DNA from: Clostridia bacterium
Lineage (GTDB): Bacteria; Bacillota; DUMD01
Length of the DNA: 57,750 nt
Direction: 5' to 3'
NCBI GenBank assembly: GCA_012840065.1
Contig: DUMD01000024.1
Span: 1-57,750, forward strand
Shown piece after piece: positions 616 through 18,839 of the stretch. Position numbers and translations under genes: made by a program. The notes below the pieces were generated by a model. That model did no database searches, was not told where the DNA came from, and saw only the letters and a list, made by a program, of their open reading frames with translations. The stretch's first letter is position 1, and every line of letters begins with the position of its first letter.

Positions 616-2160
616 CTATTCCTCTGCCAACCAAGTCCTTATAACTTGAGCTGCGTTTTCCGGTTTCTGCTTGATTAGTTTTTCTATTTCTTCCCTTAAC
701 TGTTTCTTTTCCATCTCTTCTGCACTTAGTACTGGTTCAGATTCTATTGCACTTACTGCAACCTCTTCCCCAATGACATAATCAAGGGTGCTTTCTTTCT
801 TTTTCCTTCTATTTATTATTAACCAGGTTAACAGTCCAGCCCCACCTATGCCAGCAATGAGCAATTTTAACAATAATGGGAAACTACTTTCAGGCTGTTG
901 TAAATCTTCTCTTAGCATATCTGCTAGGGTTTGATCAAAATCCAATCCCGTTACAGATATGAAGTCCCCTCTATTCTCATCAAGTCCAATAGAAGCCGCT
1001 ACCGTATTTTCCAAAGCAGCTTGTTTTTGGGGATCTAATTCTCCATTTACTACTACTGCTACACTAAGTCTTTTTACGCTCCCCTGAGAAACAACTAATT
1101 TCTCCTTAATTTCATTTATTTCATAATTAACAACCCGTCTATGTGTTTCCTGATTCGTTTGACCAGTATTATCTGGACTTGTATATGTGGGTATATTAGA
1201 TTCCGTGCCTGGCACACCACCAGCTGGCGACTCAGTACCAGTAAAAGACTCCCTTAATTCTTCTATGTTTCTAATTATTCCTGACTCGTCAACAACAGGT
1301 TCAAACAATCTCTTTTCCGTTTCCAGTTGATTAAAATCTAAAACCGCATTTACTCTAACCTGCACATTACCCGGCCCCAATACCTGCTCCAAGAGGGTTT
1401 GTACACTGTGTTCCAAATCTTTTTGAAATCCTTTTTGAATTTCTAATTGTGCCATAGTAATATTATTGTTATTAGTACCCTGGGTATCACCCGAAGCTGA
1501 AATTATATTTCCATTTGTATCTAATACAGTCACATTTTCAACAGTAAGATTTTCTACACTATTAGCAACCAAATGAACAACGCCGTCCACCGCATTGGAA
1601 TCAAGCTTAAAACCAGGCTCAAGCTCTACTACCACTGCTGCTTTTGCAGGAGTCTCTTCAGAAACAAAAACTGATGATTTTGCTTCTGTTATATGAACCC
1701 GAGCATTTTTTACCCCTTTTAAATGGCTTATCGTCCTAGATAATTCCCCTTCTAATGCCTTATGATAAAGCATTTTAAGCTGAGTATCTGTAGTGCCAAA
1801 TGGTAGATCCTGCAAAGATTCAAAACCAATCACCCCTTCACTTGGCAATCCATCCGCTGCCAAGCTATTTCTAAGTTCATATACTTTTTCAAGGGGCTGG
1901 GCAACAGCAATGGTACTTCCATTGTCACTGAGTTTATAAGGAATTTTACTTTCTTTAAGTTTTTGGGTTATAGCTGATGCATCTTGAGGTTCAAGATTGC
2001 TAAATAAAATATTATATTCTTCTTTCCCCATCATAGAACTAAAAATAGTTATGATTATAAGCACAATAAGAGCTGAAGAAGCCAAAATAATTTTTTGTTT
2101 TTTAGAAAACTTATCTAATATTTCTTTAGATTGTTGCTTTAACTTCTGCACAAATTCCAT
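616..2160 (-). CDS. fliF: Flagellar MS-ring protein FliF
   Basis: 514 aa with an N-terminal TM segment, a YscJ/FliF-like periplasmic region and a C-terminal TM followed by a charged tail. Lies in flgB-flgC-fliE-fliF-fliG order. Confidence 0.93.
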   Translation of the reverse strand: MEFVQKLKQQSKEILDKFSKKQKIILASSALIVLIIITIFSSMMGKEEYNILFSNLEPQDASAITQKLKESKIPYKLSDNGSTIAVAQPLEKVYELRNSLAADGLPSEGVIGFESLQDLPFGTTDTQLKMLYHKALEGELSRTISHLKGVKNARVHITEAKSSVFVSEETPAKAAVVVELEPGFKLDSNAVDGVVHLVANSVENLTVENVTVLDTNGNIISASGDTQGTNNNNITMAQLEIQKGFQKDLEHSVQTLLEQVLGPGNVQVRVNAVLDFNQLETEKRLFEPVVDESGIIRNIEELRESFTGTESPAGGVPGTESNIPTYTSPDNTGQTNQETHRRVVNYEINEIKEKLVVSQGSVKRLSVAVVVNGELDPQKQAALENTVAASIGLDENRGDFISVTGLDFDQTLADMLREDLQQPESSFPLLLKLLIAGIGGAGLLTWLIINRRKKKESTLDYVIGEEVAVSAIESEPVLSAEEMEKKQLREEIEKLIKQKPENAAQVIRTWLAEE

Positions 2161-2190
2161 CTTGCACTCACCTCAGCATATTTCTTGGTT

Positions 2191-2487
2191 TTATAATTGC
2201 ATCCGCATAATTTCGTGGTAAGCATCTACCAATTTATTCCGAATTTCTACAGTAAGCTGGAGTGCAAGACTAGCTTTTTCAGTTGCAATAGTTACCTGAT
2301 GAACATCTTCCACTTGACCAAGAGCTAACATTGAAGACAAACGTTCAGACTCTTTCTGGAGAGCATTTACATCATTTATGACTTGTGTGAAAATATTTTT
2401 AAAAGAAAAATTTTGCTCATTTTTTTTATTTTCCATTCCCTCAAAACTTGCTAGTCTTGGAATCTCAACTCTGCTTAAAATTTTCAT
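2191..2487 (-). CDS. fliE: Flagellar hook-basal body complex protein FliE
   Basis: 98 aa with the C-terminal motif ...VHQVTIATEKASLALQLTVEIRNKLVDAYHEIMRMQL typical of FliE; position between flgC and fliF. Confidence 0.9.
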   Translation of the reverse strand: MKILSRVEIPRLASFEGMENKKNEQNFSFKNIFTQVINDVNALQKESERLSSMLALGQVEDVHQVTIATEKASLALQLTVEIRNKLVDAYHEIMRMQL

Positions 2488-2508
2488 ACAACTATCCTCC
2501 TAGTTAAT

Positions 2509-2952
2509 CTATCTACTGATTTCTAAAGCTTTAAGAAACATAGCTTTTGCTGAATTAACAGCCGTAACATTAGCTTGATAAGCTCTTGTAGCTCCAATCA
2601 TATCTACCATTTCTTTAACCAAATCAACATTAGGATAGGCCACATAACCCTGTTCATTTGCATCTGGATGGTTAGGATCATAAATAAGTTTAGGTGGGCT
2701 TTGATCTTCTCTTATAGCTGCAACCCTAACTCCCCCAAATTTTGAACTAGTTTCCAAACTATTGTTAAGGTAAGATCTAAAACTTTTATCCTGTTCTATA
2801 GGAACAAAAACAGCCACCTGTCTTTTATAAGGGCCTCCTTGCTCGGTTCTTGTCGTTTGTGCATTGGCTATGTTATTTGAAATTATGTCCATTCTTAATC
2901 TTTGAGCGGTCAAACCGGAGGCACTAATTGCGAATGATGTAAATAAATTCAT
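2509..2952 (-). CDS. flgC: Flagellar basal-body rod protein FlgC
   Basis: N-terminal SASGLTAQRLRMDIISNNIANAQTT rod-protein motif and C-terminal YQANV...; 147 aa. Confidence 0.93.
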   Translation of the reverse strand: MNLFTSFAISASGLTAQRLRMDIISNNIANAQTTRTEQGGPYKRQVAVFVPIEQDKSFRSYLNNSLETSSKFGGVRVAAIREDQSPPKLIYDPNHPDANEQGYVAYPNVDLVKEMVDMIGATRAYQANVTAVNSAKAMFLKALEISR

Positions 2953-2954
2953 TT

Positions 2955-3350
2955 TTATCTCCCTCCACCATTAATTACTGTTTTCAATAACGCAAAATGC
3001 GCACCTACTTGTTGAGACAAGGCTTGATAATATAAAGTGTTTTGAGCAAGTTTTACCATTTCTTCATCCACATCAACGTTATTGCCGTCATTCCTCATAC
3101 TAGTTGTTTTTATTTCTCTGATAACATCTTCTTGTTTATTTTTAGCTAGTGGGTCTGTTGTTCCAATTCCATTAGAGTAATTAGCAAGGGCATCCTCTAA
3201 CAAGCCAGAAAAAGAAACTTCTTTCTTTTTATAACCGGGAGTTTCAGAATTAGCTATATTTTCGGAAATAATCCTATGACGCAAAGCGGAAAGATCTAAT
3301 CCTTTTTCCATTAATCTTATAGCTGGAATATTAAAGATATTTCTTATCAT
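2955..3350 (-). CDS. flgB: Flagellar basal-body rod protein FlgB
   Basis: LSALRHRIISENIANSETPGYKKKEVSF rod motif; first gene of the flagellar operon; RBS GAAAGGAAAGG upstream. Confidence 0.92.
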   Translation of the reverse strand: MIRNIFNIPAIRLMEKGLDLSALRHRIISENIANSETPGYKKKEVSFSGLLEDALANYSNGIGTTDPLAKNKQEDVIREIKTTSMRNDGNNVDVDEEMVKLAQNTLYYQALSQQVGAHFALLKTVINGGGR

Positions 3351-3445: not shown

Positions 3446-3592
3446 GCATAATAATACACAAATACCCTAGATAAAGCTAGGGTACGAACAAGTAGGACAA
3501 TCACAGCAACCGGCTGTCATAGACTTAAATAAGTCCTTAGACCCTTGGCTTTGCGTCCTGGGCTTTCGCCCAGTTTGCCTTTTTTGTACATC
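3446..3592 (-). promoter_or_regulatory. c-di-GMP-I (GEMM-I) riboswitch aptamer plus terminator-like expression platform in the flgB leader
   Basis: Minus strand reads GGCAAAC-UGGGC-GAAA-GCCCA-GGACGCAAAGCC-AAGGGUCUAAGGACUU-AUUU-AAGUCUAUGAC-AGCC. This shows the hallmark GGCAAAC, a GNRA-capped first hairpin, the ACGCAAAGCC junction and a second hairpin with CUAAG/UAUG tetraloop-receptor-like bulges. A hairpin ACCCUAG-CUUUAU-CUAGGGU (3464-3483) and a U-rich tract follow. Confidence 0.8.
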
Positions 3593-3806: not shown

Positions 3807-4601
3807 TTATGAGTTTTTAATTTTGTTGTTTTTTTTCAATTCTTCTAAAAGACGTTCATTAAGTACTTTAATATAAGTACCCTTCATCCCCAAAGACTGG
3901 GATTCTATCACCCCAGCACTTTCAAATTTGCGGAGAGCATTAACAATAACCGAACGGGTAATCCCAACTCTATCGGCAATTTTGCTAGCAACAAGAAGGC
4001 CTTCATTTCCATCTAATTCTTCAAAAATATGAGTTACCGCCTCTAATTCGGAATAAGAAAGTGTACCAAGAGCTATCTGAACCGCTGCTTTTCTCCTCGC
4101 TTCTTCTTCAATCTTCTCCGCTTTAACTCTTAGAATTTCCATTCCAACAACCGTTGCTCCATATTCTGCTAAAATTAAATCTTCATCTGTAAATTCATCT
4201 TGAAACTTTGCTAAAATCAAAGTACCAAGCCGCTCGCCACCTCCCTTAATAGGGACAATGGTCATTAACTTGCCGTTAAATATACAATCCGTCTGCTCTT
4301 TAAATACGCAAAGCTGTTTATTTTGAGGAATGTTTGCCGATGTTTCTTCAAATTCTAAAATCCACTTATTATATTCTGGTGGAAACTTTTCCTTACGCAA
4401 AACCTCATCCTTCATAATTTCGCATTCAAAACCGTCTAAAAGTGCATAGCCCAAAATTTCTCCTGAATTATTAACAATATAGATGTTAGTTCCTATTAAC
4501 TCACTCAATACGGTAGACATTAATCCAAAATCAACTAAACTGCCGGCTGTTTTTAATAGCAGCTTATTAATTCTTCTTGTTCTTTCTAATAATGTCCTCA
4601 T
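3807..4601 (-). CDS. codY: GTP/BCAA-sensing pleiotropic repressor CodY
   Basis: GAF-like N-terminus and C-terminal w[47 protein letters not shown]; follows hslVU as in Bacillus. Confidence 0.95.
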
Positions 4602-15497: not shown

Positions 15498-15572
15498 TGG
15501 TGCGCCTGGCAGGAATCGAACCTGCGCACCTGGCTCCGGAGGCCAGTGCTCTATCCACTGAGCTACAGGCGC
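15498..15572 (-). tRNA. tRNA-Arg (anticodon CCG)
   Basis: Reverse complement GCGCCTGTAGCTCAGTGGATAGAGCACTGGCCTCCGGAGCCAGGTGCGCAGGTTCGATTCCTGCCAGGCGCACCA folds as a cloverleaf: 7-bp acceptor, D arm GCTC/GAGC, anticodon loop CUCCGGA, T arm GCAGG/CCTGC with TTCGATT, encoded CCA. Confidence 0.95.
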
Positions 15573-15689: not shown

Positions 15690-15914
15690 TTATTCATTTT
15701 GTTCATGTTGAAAAATTCTAATAAGTTTTTCTACCATTTCATTTTTTTCCTGATATGATTCCTCCCGGTCTGTGGTTACTAAAAAATTTATTACATCTCC
15801 TACAATTACCCCTTTAGGCAAAAGAGCAATAGGAAGATTCACCTTAATTTCATTTTCACCTACTAGCAATACAGCATATTCATTTTCTATACTCTGAACA
15901 ATTGCCTTCATCAT
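15690..15914 (-). CDS. DUF3006-like small protein
   Basis: 74 aa. N-terminal beta-rich part (EYAVLLVGENEIKVNLPIALLPKGVIVGDVINF) resembles the second DUF3006-type ORF at 30415-30627. Confidence 0.6.
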   Translation of the reverse strand: MMKAIVQSIENEYAVLLVGENEIKVNLPIALLPKGVIVGDVINFLVTTDREESYQEKNEMVEKLIRIFQHEQNE

Positions 15915-16084
15915 TCCGCCCCCATCTTGTCTTTTATAATATTATACTTTATTATTATTTTTTAAACAATATAACCTAGTCTTGCAACAATATTCAAAAA
16001 ATTTAGACAACCGCAAAATTCTGCAATATCCATCAAAATTTGTACTTTATAATAAATTTAAATGAGGTTAAGGAAGTGATAAAG

Positions 16085-16168
16085 ATGTCCTACTTTACAA
16101 CTGTATTACTAGGCACTTGCGGACTGTTATCCATTTTATTGCTAGCATGCAGATTTCTCAAATCCTAA
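16085..16168 (+). CDS. Candidate 27-aa hydrophobic peptide (MSYFTTVLLGTCGLLSILLLACRFLKS)
   Basis: Found by reading the intergenic region: RBS AAGGAAG 7 nt before the ATG, a single predicted TM helix with a basic C-terminus, and a strong hairpin terminator 85 nt downstream. Below the ORF-track size cutoff. Confidence 0.3.
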   Translation: MSYFTTVLLGTCGLLSILLLACRFLKS

Positions 16169-16251
16169 GACAATTAAAAGCTAGAGAATTTGGGATAACG
16201 GCATTTATTGTAAATGAGTATTTTCTTTGTTAAAAACATCTAAGACTATTT

Positions 16252-16278
16252 AAAAAGTCTCCCTGAGGGAGACTTTTT
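16252..16278. terminator. Bidirectional intrinsic terminator between convergent genes
   Basis: AAAAA-GTCTCCC-tga-GGGAGAC-TTTTT. Confidence 0.8.
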
Positions 16279-16305
16279 AAATTCTTCGCCTATATAAAAC
16301 TTTGA

Positions 16306-16644
16306 TTAATTTTTTCTATTGTCTCGAGAAGACTTATCAACACAGTTGATAGGTTTCCTTGCCAGACCGGTTTTATACAAAGCCTCAAAAATAACATTGC
16401 TTCCACCTGCTATAAACAGCCCTGTTAAAATTTGATCGGCCCATACCCAGCGGACTTCAAAACCAATTTTATTTAAAATACCAGCTTTAGATACAAATGC
16501 CACAATAAGACCTACTGCAATTGCAATAATCCCACTATATTTATCACCAATAACCCGTTTTATATTATGGGTTATTACCTGTGCTACTGCAGCTAATAAG
16601 AATAATCCTAAAAAATGAATCGTAATCCCTGCATCCTCAAACAA
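16306..16644 (-). CDS. Small three-TM membrane protein, holin-like (A118 Hol-type pattern)
   Basis: 112 aa, TTG start after GGGGTGA. The pattern ...AVAQVITHNIKRVIGDKYSGIIAIAVGLIVAF... and ...ILTGLFIAGGSNVIFEALYK plus a charged tail resembles listerial A118-type holins by eye. Confidence 0.45.
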   Translation of the reverse strand: MFEDAGITIHFLGLFLLAAVAQVITHNIKRVIGDKYSGIIAIAVGLIVAFVSKAGILNKIGFEVRWVWADQILTGLFIAGGSNVIFEALYKTGLARKPINCVDKSSRDNRKN

Positions 16645-16735
16645 CCACTATCACCCCTAACCATAACTCAAATATAGAGCACTTCTAATCTATTATATGC
16701 AGAGACATGCAGGAATTTTTTATTTTATTAAAAAA

Positions 16736-16771
16736 ACTAAAAACCTTTCACCTCCAAGTGAAAGGTTTTTA
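16736..16771 (-). terminator. Intrinsic terminator after the PG-binding/LysM gene
   Basis: AAACCTTTCAC-ctccaa-GTGAAAGGTTT, an 11-bp stem flanked by A/T runs. Confidence 0.75.
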
Positions 16772-16783
16772 TCAACTGATTAG

Positions 16784-17779
16784 TTATTCTCCAGCTGCCT
16801 TCCGTACCATTGCTTGATGATTAGGATCAACTTTATTTGAACTATGAGTTTTACTACCTAAAAAGTGAAGATCAAAATGTCCATCCATTCCATTACCTTT
16901 TACTTTGTCTAAATTAGTTCCTGTTCCATAACCCCCACTTCTACCACTTACATTTACTCCGTAAGGTTTATCATCCCTCCCAGCATGAGGCATTCCAGCC
17001 ATAGATGCTGCAATTCTCCTGCCATTAACTGTAACAACTACTGCCCGCCTATTCCAACTCCAATTTCCTCCGTATATCCTCTTCATAATTTGTGTATCTT
17101 GCAAAGAAAGAGGTTCACAGTCTGCATGATTATAACCACCTGTTCTCCTAATTTGAAAACTCAGTCCAGTTTCTAAATCTGTTATAGTAGCTATACCATC
17201 CCGAGGAAAAATATTCTCGACTTGTCCAAACCAAGGAAGTAATTCCCCATAGCCTGGCTTTACTCTTTCTCCTCTGGAAACCTGACTGTCAGAAGGAACG
17301 ACAAGCTTCTGCCCAACTTGAAGCATAGTAGATTGTAAACCATTCAATTGGGATAAAGTGTCTACATCAGTATTAAATTTTTGAGCAATTAGCCAAAGAG
17401 TATCACCTTTTTCAACTATGTAATATGTAGTTTCCGATCTGTTTCCTCCCCTAGATGCTAAGTTGCTTTCTCCCGCGTTTTCTAATTTTTTCCAGGTTTG
17501 GGAACCAACAATTCCATCCACTTTCAACCCGTTGGCCCTTTGAAACTCCTTTACTGCCTCCAGAGTAATTGTTCCAAAATAAGCAGTTGGTTCAACGCGG
17601 AAATAATTTAATTCCCGCAGTCTTTCCTGTAAAATTTGGACATTTGTCCCTCTCATCCCAAACTTTAATAACTGCTGAGGAGCACTAAAGTTTGCTGCCA
17701 CAGCTTGTCCACCATGAAGACATGTAAAAAAAATAGACATATTTAAGCCTGCTACAATTAAAGATTTCTTAAAATTCAT
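16784..17779 (-). CDS. Secreted peptidoglycan-binding protein (PG_binding_1 + LysM + uncharacterised C-terminal domain), putative cell-wall hydrolase
   Basis: Signal peptide; PG_binding_1 repeat (GTNVQILQERLRELNY...FQRANGLKVDGIVGSQTWKKL); LysM (YYIVEKGDTLWLIAQKFNTDVDTLSQLNGL...GQKLVVP). The C-terminal ~170 aa contain His/Asp-rich GHFDLHF. Confidence 0.8.
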   Translation of the reverse strand: MNFKKSLIVAGLNMSIFFTCLHGGQAVAANFSAPQQLLKFGMRGTNVQILQERLRELNYFRVEPTAYFGTITLEAVKEFQRANGLKVDGIVGSQTWKKLENAGESNLASRGGNRSETTYYIVEKGDTLWLIAQKFNTDVDTLSQLNGLQSTMLQVGQKLVVPSDSQVSRGERVKPGYGELLPWFGQVENIFPRDGIATITDLETGLSFQIRRTGGYNHADCEPLSLQDTQIMKRIYGGNWSWNRRAVVVTVNGRRIAASMAGMPHAGRDDKPYGVNVSGRSGGYGTGTNLDKVKGNGMDGHFDLHFLGSKTHSSNKVDPNHQAMVRKAAGE

Positions 17780-17799
17780 AAAAACACTCCTCTCTTTAA

Positions 17800-17924
17800 G
17801 CCTACGAGGTTAGTTGACGGGTTCGGGAAAAGAGTAACCCGGCCGTAAAATACGGCTTCACCCCTGATCATAAGATCCTTATCCCCCGCTCCTTTAATAA
17901 GGATTCGGCATAAAACCCATGTGC
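17800..17924 (-). promoter_or_regulatory. ydaO/yuaA-type c-di-AMP riboswitch
   Basis: Minus strand reads ...GCCGAAUCC...AGGAGCGGGGGAUAAGGAUC...AGGGGUGAAGCCGUAUUUUACGGCCGGGUUACUCUUUUCCCGAACCCGUCAACUAACCUCGUAGGC. It carries the family signatures GAGCGGGGGA, GGGGUGAA and CCCGAACCCGUCAxCUAACCUCGUAxGC, and ends ~20 nt before the ATG. Confidence 0.85.
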
Positions 17925-17926
17925 CT

Positions 17927-17956
17927 ACTATATCAATTTGCGCCACATTATGTCAA
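17927..17956 (-). promoter_or_regulatory. Candidate sigma-A promoter for the riboswitch-LysM transcript
   Basis: Minus strand TTGACA (17956-17951), 18 nt, TATAGT (17932-17927), immediately 5' of the aptamer. Confidence 0.5.
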
Positions 17957-18263
17957 TCGAAAAATGTCGTTTTCTTAAATAAAAATAAAATTTTTGTTAA
18001 TTTGGTTAATAATTATAAACTAAATAATTTTTAACAAACCATATTAATTAAATAAATTTTAAACTATCAAAAAAATAATTATAAATAATCATAAATCTCT
18101 AAATTAATTATTTGTTCTAAATTATTTCAAACCACCAAAGGATATTTCTCAAATTCTCCTTTACTAATTAAGTCTGTTTAGTTTCTTAAGAATAACTCAT
18201 TTTCATTTCTGGTTTTACTAGTAAGGTTGTTATATAATACTAAAAATAGAGGTGGTAAAATAA

Positions 18264-18839
18264 ATGAAAAATCAACTAAGAAAAATAATTCTCCAACGAA
18301 GAGACAATTTAAAACCTGAAGAAAGACTTTCTTTAAGCAAACAAATCTGGACTTCTTTATTTACTCTCCCTGAATTTCTAAAAGCAAAACATATAATGAT
18401 TTATTTAAACTTCGGTAGTGAAGTAGAAACAATCCCATTTATTGACGATTTATTCTCTCAGAATAAAAATGTTTATGCTCCGGTTACAAACACTAAAAAC
18501 AAATCTCTAACAATTTATCCTATAATAAAGGATAAAACTAAATTGTTTAAAGGATCCTATGGAATTCCGGAACCGGAAAAAGTTAATGGTCCAATTAACC
18601 CCTCTCAAATTGATCTTATTATTGTCCCGGGGGTTGTTTTTGACTTTGACTGCCAGCGTATTGGCTATGGGGCAGGCTATTACGATCGTTTTCTGCAGTC
18701 TGTTAGCCCTTCTGCAACAATTCTGGGTATCGCTTATGACTTGCAATTAGTGAAGAAAATAAAGACAGACAAACATGACTTACCGATGGATCTAGTGGTA
18801 ACCGAAAAAAGAATTATCAACAGAAAAAATAAATCCTAG
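18264..18839 (+). CDS. 5-formyltetrahydrofolate cyclo-ligase
   Basis: 191 aa with the LR..ILQRRDNL start, ...VYAPV... and C-terminal GYGAGYYDRFL motif. Confidence 0.88.
   Translation: MKNQLRKIILQRRDNLKPEERLSLSKQIWTSLFTLPEFLKAKHIMIYLNFGSEVETIPFIDDLFSQNKNVYAPVTNTKNKSLTIYPIIKDKTKLFKGSYGIPEPEKVNGPINPSQIDLIIVPGVVFDFDCQRIGYGAGYYDRFLQSVSPSATILGIAYDLQLVKKIKTDKHDLPMDLVVTEKRIINRKNKS

Follow-up and report, generated by a model that had tools for sequence, protein, structure and literature searches.

The window examined here, a stretch of 57,750 nucleotides from a member of the Clostridia (Clostridia bacterium; contig DUMD01000024.1 of assembly GCA_012840065.1), carries on its minus strand a riboswitch of the cyclic di-AMP (c-di-AMP; ydaO/yuaA) class immediately in front of a gene for a predicted secreted protein with PG_binding_1 and LysM modules. 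This riboswitch is probably a translational OFF switch, in which a pseudoknot stabilised by c-di-AMP would partly occlude the ribosome-binding site (RBS) of the gene. The evidence for this view comes from the anatomy of the leader, from its conservation across clostridial homologues and from published work on related RNAs.

Class membership and anatomy of the leader

A scan of all Rfam families with cmscan matched the minus strand at 17920..17785 to RF00379 (c-di-AMP/ydaO) with 86.6 bits (gathering score 38, E 7.5e-19), which is far above chance and more than twice the gathering threshold, and the match extends over positions 1-134 of the 134 in the model, is not truncated and includes the purine-rich 3' tail. 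The call of a ydaO-type c-di-AMP riboswitch that had been made in an initial annotation, with a search against RF00379 as its suggested check, is thus confirmed over the full model, and the strings quoted in its support (GAGCGGGGGA, GGGGUGAA, CCCGAACCCGUCAACUAACCUCGUAGGC, GGGUUACUCUUUUCCC and AAAGAGAGGAG) all lie on the minus strand where they had been placed, GGGUUACUCUUUUCCC corresponding to 17840..17825 and AAAGAGAGGAG to 17797..17787. The blocks of the pseudo-two-fold core (CGGGGGA ... GGGGUGAA ... CCCGAACCCG.CA.CUAACCUCG) are all intact, with posterior probability '*' in the cmscan alignment, and are invariant in an alignment of 12 sequences (A2). Minor helix irregularities aside, the element possesses every feature of RF00379 membership examined; by its sequence it is a standard riboswitch of this family, of which the class, ligand, polarity, regulon and expression logic have already been published, and standard annotation with Rfam would recover it automatically.

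The irregularities concern two of the nested helices, most of which fit the model. Helix P1 is short, its 5' strand UGCC (17910..17907) and 3' strand GGCU (17802..17799) forming three G-C pairs and a flagged U.U mismatch, and the 2-bp model helix that follows GGGGGA is flagged as non-canonical in the window, where a local GAUC/GAUC hairpin is found instead. This peripheral hairpin (17862..17874, minus strand) reads GAUC-UUAU-GAUC in the window and GACC-UCUAU-GGUC at about 498..512 of the homologous locus L085, the protein of which is 65% identical to that of the window; the U-A to C-G compensatory change suggests that the local variant helix is maintained, as expected under purifying selection on structure. 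Minimum-free-energy (MFE) folding of the leader gave a z-score of -0.52, with a similar outcome in a second run, and the Rfam-type nested structure reaches -17.6 kcal/mol versus -46.7 kcal/mol for the MFE fold; such folding is uninformative for this leader, since its native fold depends on the ligand and contains a pseudoknot.

The initial annotation had also placed a TTGACA-18-TATAGT promoter in front of the aptamer, and this was recovered with 11/12 matches as the top promoter-like site in 16000..18600, with a TG at 17935..17934, one base upstream of the -10 hexamer (Table 1). As a class, promoter-like sites are not enriched in this A+T-rich region (13 found versus 10.0 +/- 3.6 expected in shuffles), and the credibility of the promoter therefore rests on its position and conservation: both hexamers and the 18-nt spacing are kept in the closest relative, L081, in which the spacer sequence has diverged, and L085 retains only the TTGACA -35 element, its -10 region being different. 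Transcription would start at about 17921..17919, and with a start near 17920 the leader would measure ~140 nt and consist essentially of the aptamer alone.

Downstream of the aptamer, the terminator scan of the region detected no terminator-like site before the ATG (17920..17779), as had been claimed, and the last base of P1 (C17800) is separated from the ATG by 20 nt, in agreement with the earlier estimate of ~20 nt from the 3' end of the aptamer; because of this short distance there is no room for an intrinsic terminator. The terminator-like hairpin that follows the gene suggests that the unit is probably monocistronic.

Two candidates in the leader were set aside. The CCUC/GAGG hairpin of the MFE fold was rejected as a ligand-free trap for the Shine-Dalgarno (SD) sequence, having 4 bp only and a 13-nt loop, with CCUC forming part of a conserved aptamer helix, and an open reading frame (ORF) of 56 aa that overlaps the aptamer (17946..17776) was treated as a chance ORF across structured RNA.

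Table 1. Coordinates of the riboswitch, its parts and the regulated transcription unit in the window.
Feature	Position	Strand	Basis or remark
Sigma-70-type promoter	17927..17956	-	-35 TTGACA 17956..17951, 18-nt spacer, -10 TATAGT 17932..17927
c-di-AMP (ydaO/yuaA) aptamer	17785..17920	-	RF00379 match
Span enclosed by helix P1	17799..17910	-	cmscan alignment structure line
Last aptamer hairpin, GGG-UUACUCUUUU-CCC	17825..17840	-	Loop holds the pseudoknot 5' strand; aligns with GGGUUACUCCUUCGACCC of the 4QLM construct
Pseudoknot 5' strand, CUCUUU	17829..17834	-	Resembles an anti-Shine-Dalgarno sequence; six Watson-Crick pairs with 17797..17792
Pseudoknot 3' strand, AAAGAG	17792..17797	-	Alignment to 4QLM, co-variation
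Shine-Dalgarno region, AGAGAGGAG	17787..17795	-	Best pairing with a Bacillus-type 16S 3' tail
Regulated gene, 331 aa	16784..17779 (ATG 17779..17777)	-	ORF and domain matches
Unannotated conserved C-terminal domain, residues ~176-331 (~155 residues)	16787..17254	-	Homologue alignment
Terminator-like hairpin and T-run after the gene	16738..16771	-	15-pair stem, then GTTTTTTT; only such site in the region

A conserved pseudoknot that overlaps the Shine-Dalgarno region

It had been proposed that an internal CUCUUU is complementary to the AAAGAG of the ribosome-binding region and acts as an anti-RBS element. The complementarity is real, comprising the pairs C17834-G17792, U17833-A17793, C17832-G17794, U17831-A17795, U17830-A17796 and U17829-A17797, but the pairing is not an addition to the aptamer. 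In alignment, the two strands match CUCCUUC/GAAGGAG of the Thermoanaerobacter pseudethanolicus crystal construct (4QLM) position by position, and the 3' strand lies within the Rfam consensus, so that CUCUUU/AAAGAG is to be regarded as the conserved pseudoknot of the class itself. The sequence of the construct is ...GGGUUACUCCUUCGACCC...GCAAGCGUCCGAAGGAGAA (PMC5393176), and when it is aligned with the window, ACUCCUUC corresponds to ACUCUUU, and GAAGGAG to the purine-rich tail AAAGAGAGGAG. The RF00379 consensus has 'cuAcucUuuugg' as the loop of its last hairpin and 'uuaaaGaGaGgaaaa' at its 3' end, including the 'aaaGaGaGg' that contains the 3' strand.

The SD core GGAG is found at 17790..17787, 7 nt before the ATG, and the overlap with the pseudoknot is partial: four of the nine nucleotides of the extended SD, at its 5' end, are pseudoknot bases as well, and the helix stops two bases short of the GGAG core, at a distance of 13 nt from the AUG. 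The SD:anti-SD duplex formed with a Bacillus-type 16S tail amounts to -13.8 kcal/mol, falling to -7.2 kcal/mol (for the remaining AGGAGUG) when everything up to G17792 is unavailable. Since the 3' strand of the pseudoknot is the 5' part of the extended SD AGAGAGGAG, the loop of the riboswitch would compete with the 16S rRNA tail for one purine tract.

To place this arrangement in context, a profile of 24 homologues (A1) was used to retrieve 80 homologous loci, nearly all of them from Clostridia, from the GTDB species representatives, no protein of which is more than 46% identical to the window protein. An RF00379 match above the gathering score lies upstream of the gene, in the same orientation, at 39 loci out of 80, and a covariance model built from 12 of these and applied to the family found the element in 44 loci and the window. 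In the 45-sequence alignment (A3), 91% of the cells in nested helices pair and 10 of the 18 pairs have changed on both sides, a level of pairing and co-variation reached by 0/500 shuffles and far above that of slid controls. Counting the window, 39 leaders were analysable; in 35 of them the start codon follows P1 after 15-25 nt, and the tail is always purine-rich. The abutment of aptamer and RBS, which had been called unusual, is therefore the rule in this gene family, and the layout is also known for Clostridia and Actinobacteria (PMC9960051, PMC11963983, PMC10907184).

The remaining four leaders carry insertions of 57-136 nt between P1 and the start codon (L001, 1413..1493; L002, 1354..1489; L015, 1300..1430; L042, 1379..1435) and keep a AAGGAGAGGAG-like RBS. 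To the eye, the insert of L001 might fold into a branched hairpin with a U-rich stretch after it, and in these leaders there may be either a pseudoknot that reaches a distant SD or another expression platform. In locus L034 (1309..1479), an insertion of ~35-40 nt lies inside the otherwise invariant CCCGUCAACUAACCUCG block; the Rfam score of 40.4 bits is barely over the gathering score, the element still ends in GGGAGAGGAGAGUAAGUG beside the start codon, and the aptamer may be a split or decaying member of the class. Gene copies of the Clostridia type were also encountered in bins labelled Caulobacteraceae (L023, L038) and Ignavibacteriales (L065), those in L038 and L065 with a c-di-AMP riboswitch, and such placements probably reflect binning errors rather than gene transfer.

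Loop and tail also vary together. Watson-Crick stems between cognate loops and tails are longer than those between swapped ones (mean 5.08 versus 4.70 +/- 0.10; 4/10000 permutations), and of the nine loops with at least three U after CUC, eight are accompanied by a tail with at least three A before GAG, as against 0/27 of the other loops (Fisher 3e-7). The loop U-run and tail A-run are U4/A3 in the window, U5/A4 in its closest relatives L081 and L085, which have gained one U in the loop together with one A in the tail, and U7/A6 in L065. These two tests replaced a column-wise count of pseudoknot covariation (on A3 and on a MAFFT alignment, A6), which was dropped because neither alignment places gaps in the tails and, with linkers of variable length, the 3' strand does not stay in the same columns.

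On this basis, the following course of events can be proposed for the window RNA. c-di-AMP would fill the two pockets of the pseudo-symmetric aptamer, and the ligand-filled aptamer would stabilise the long-range pseudoknot between the loop CUCUUU and the tail AAAGAG. The stabilised pseudoknot would withhold the 5' half of the SD contact from the 30S subunit, and the compact aptamer fold would sit within the 30S landing site, 13 nt from the AUG, so that initiation would drop. At low c-di-AMP the pseudoknot would be dynamic and the site free, and the wall-acting protein would be made. The aptamer itself would thus serve as the expression platform, with no need for a separate one. To judge from the known regulon, high c-di-AMP would be expected to curb synthesis of this secreted wall-acting protein.

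Several published observations are consistent with this scheme. In the T. pseudethanolicus riboswitch, no element responds more sensitively to Mg2+ and c-di-AMP than the pseudoknot, in which nt 83-88 pair with nt 125-130 (PMC11963983, Sci Adv 2025). It has been demonstrated that this pseudoknot sequesters the SD, that c-di-AMP made by DisA lowers GFP about 6-fold in Escherichia coli and that mutations in pseudoknot or SD disrupt repression, the homologue from T. tengcongensis being likewise repressed by c-di-AMP (PMC11963983). In addition, a 2024 review counts ydaO among the riboswitches in which docking occludes the RBS (PMC10907184), and the Corynebacterium glutamicum nlpC element has been reported as translational (PMC9960051). 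Cell-wall remodelling genes are part of the known regulon of the class (PMC7266159, PMC9960051), which matches the earlier statement that this family governs cell-wall as well as ion and osmolyte transport functions and into which the PG_binding_1/LysM gene fits. Translational rather than transcriptional control, as originally suggested, is accordingly the best-supported reading in view of the missing terminator, the 20 nt between P1 and ATG, the 35/39 leaders and the Thermoanaerobacter results (PMC11963983).

On the other hand, a number of points weigh against translational repression through the pseudoknot. Ligand identity, OFF polarity and sequestration of the SD by the pseudoknot are taken from the literature on homologues, so that c-di-AMP binding and regulation by the window RNA are expectations from homology, and the Thermoanaerobacter reporter work used E. 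coli rather than the native host (PMC11963983). In the homologous register, pairing within the SD is limited to AGAG and does not extend to the GGAG core, and repression may consequently be partial or mainly steric. As an isolated helix, the A/U-rich six base pairs are weak (-3.8 kcal/mol versus -9.1 kcal/mol for the 4QLM helix), and the AG repeats permit other registers, such as one of 9-10 pairs with G.U over GAGAGGAGUG at -8.2 kcal/mol. Nested-structure prediction, a method that cannot model the pseudoknotted fold, has the SD partly paired even in the ligand-free state (probability that GGA is unpaired about 0.2). Finally, neither the permutation test nor the Fisher test takes phylogenetic relatedness into account, and their numbers are indicative rather than formal probabilities. 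With the GGAG core free, a possible variant at the RNA level is that the 30S landing site is blocked sterically rather than through SD pairing.

Known systems and alternative routes of control

The closest parallel is offered by the Thermoanaerobacter pseudethanolicus and T. tengcongensis riboswitches (4QLM/4QLN; 'riboCdA', PMC11963983), which share with the window element the Rfam class, the hairpin GGGUUACUC..., the pseudoknot register, and a purine-rich 3' strand at the RBS followed soon by the start codon without a terminator, and for which translational OFF control has been reported. The difference is one of degree: there the GAAGGAG strand is itself the SD and forms a G/C-richer helix (-9.1 kcal/mol), whereas the AAAGAG of the window (-3.8 kcal/mol) reaches no further than the 5' flank of the SD, so that GGAG stays free. 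The C. glutamicum nlpC and Streptomyces coelicolor rpfA elements, as described in PMC9960051, are also terminator-less and located in front of genes for cell-wall enzymes, and a CU-rich segment of their aptamers is proposed to pair with the GGAG of the RBS; according to the same account they differ in being actinobacterial and G+C-rich, in a ligand-free stem that is added in the C. glutamicum model and in the transcript-level effects reported for rpfA. The preQ1-I/II/III, SAM-II and SAM/SAH riboswitches likewise hide the RBS through a ligand-stabilised pseudoknot or docking without a separate platform (PMC10907184), although their folds are unrelated and their ligands are others, so that the resemblance is one of mechanism only.

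Among the alternatives, the one that survives best, although it is unlikely, is that the riboswitch acts mainly on the mRNA, by Rho-dependent termination, RNase attack on mRNA that is not translated or a direct effect on RNA polymerase of the kind proposed for rpfA, with occlusion of the SD being secondary or absent. Translation block and mRNA decay are frequently coupled, which counts for such a route. The rpfA riboswitch provides a precedent, as it is without a terminator and yet alters the transcript level according to the account in PMC9960051. Against this, the feature conserved across the gene family is that a pseudoknot strand and the SD coincide, at a short and constant spacing from the start codon, which points to initiation as the selected target; furthermore, transcript levels were unchanged in C. 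glutamicum (PMC9960051) and the Thermoanaerobacter switches functioned under T7 transcription in E. coli (PMC11963983).

A less probable option keeps control at translation and shifts the register, so that the loop UACUCUUUUC would pair with GAGAGGAGUG (17794..17785), G.U pairs included, and bury the whole GGAG core. This register is ranked best by duplexfold (-8.2 versus -3.8 kcal/mol for CUCUUU/AAAGAG), and two overlapping purine motifs in many homologous tails permit slippage, but it needs three G.U pairs and the opening of a hairpin stem pair (C17827), and both the co-variation of U-runs with A-runs (8/9 versus 0/27) and the alignment to the crystal construct back the AAAGAG register.

Control through an intrinsic terminator, as in Bacillus subtilis ydaO (kimA), where c-di-AMP lets the terminator form and transcription stops before the gene, is highly improbable for the window gene and was rejected on anatomical grounds. 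Members of the class were first shown to work in this way, as summarised in PMC9960051, and the aptamer class and, by analogy, the ligand and OFF polarity would be shared with that system. A U5 run (17784..17780) moreover stands just before the ATG. In B. subtilis, however, the riboswitch has an intrinsic terminator and precedes a K+ importer gene (PMC9960051), whereas the window element precedes a gene for a cell-wall-binding protein and has no terminator-like stem and T-run, the only 20 nt available after P1 being occupied by the SD; the U5 run is separated by 7 nt from the pseudoknot helix and has no counterpart in homologous tails, and a simple scan revealed no terminator-like site in the four long-spacer leaders either. 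Least credible of all is a decayed aptamer, or one of altered specificity, that does not respond to c-di-AMP and leaves the gene constitutively expressed from a strong promoter: the short P1 with its U.U mismatch and the off-model helix after GGGGGA (two pairs flagged) could be read in this way, but the score, the intact core blocks, the compensatory change in the replacement hairpin of L085 (GACC/GGUC) and the co-variation of nested helices across the 45 family members speak against it.

The regulated protein, its neighbourhood and biological meaning

The protein encoded behind the riboswitch has an N-terminus that is basic and then hydrophobic, resembling a signal peptide, and is on this ground predicted to be secreted; PG_binding_1 occupies residues 43-99 (E 4.5e-20) and LysM residues 120-162 (E 3e-18). 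The C-terminal domain (Table 1) gave no match in Pfam even at E <= 10, nor any in NCBIfam or PHROGs, and a profile search of PDB sequences returned the PG-binding module only and nothing for this domain. A Foldseek search with the full-length model recovered only the PG_binding_1 and LysM modules, and the domain was therefore modelled and searched alone. Its AlphaFold model from 16 sequences is confident (predicted local distance difference test 95.7, predicted template-modelling score 0.89), and Foldseek found no relative in PDB (best E 0.05, template-modelling score 0.30) or BFVD (best E 0.14). Seven residues are invariant across 24 homologues (H218, D220, E222, H265, H305, H312 and H321), and the motifs NHADxE, MPHAG, RSGGYG, HFDxHF, SKTH and HQ hint at a catalytic or metal site. 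When 1.84 billion cluster representatives (50% identity clusters) were searched with a profile, 1,969 matched with E <= 0.001; in the best 150 of the 1,969 matches the domain is located at the C-terminus or close to it, behind peptidoglycan-binding modules wherever domains are annotated. With a c-di-AMP riboswitch upstream of about half of the sampled genes, it can tentatively be suggested that the C-terminal domain might be the catalytic module of an undescribed clostridial family of cell-wall enzymes, the synthesis of which is tied to c-di-AMP. The regulated protein is more novel than the riboswitch, and it constitutes a lead apart from the verdict on the latter.

Three features downstream of the terminator of the gene show no evident link to the riboswitch: an ORF of 112 aa without family match (16306..16644), a DUF3006 protein (15690..15914) and a tRNA-Arg (CCG) (15498..15572), all on the minus strand. 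A contig of JGI metagenome 3300012949 encodes an identical PG_binding_1/LysM protein amid the same neighbours, and there too the 112-aa ORF is called as a gene beside it. Farther away, a c-di-GMP-I riboswitch (RF01051, 82.5 bits; 3502..3589, minus strand) stands directly upstream of a flagellar operon, the ORFs of which (3350..616, minus strand) encode proteins with flagellar rod domains (FlgB/FlgC-like), FliE and FliF, and CodY is encoded just upstream of this riboswitch (4601..3807). Control of the flgB operon by c-di-GMP is known in Clostridioides difficile, and the arrangement found here resembles it.

For riboswitch biology, the window element, another representative of a class that has been studied well and has a published mechanism, adds little in itself. 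The comparative result is modestly useful, in that an aptamer serving as its own expression platform would be the rule in this clostridial gene family (35/39 leaders), and the natural co-variation of loop and tail supports a pseudoknot/SD model that has so far been based on two Thermoanaerobacter RNAs tested in E. coli. Beyond this, a large domain family with a confident model and no annotation can be assigned to the c-di-AMP regulon beside known wall hydrolases, which provides a functional hypothesis for the C-terminal domain family, namely that its members may take part in a remodelling of the cell wall that would be shut down when c-di-AMP is high.

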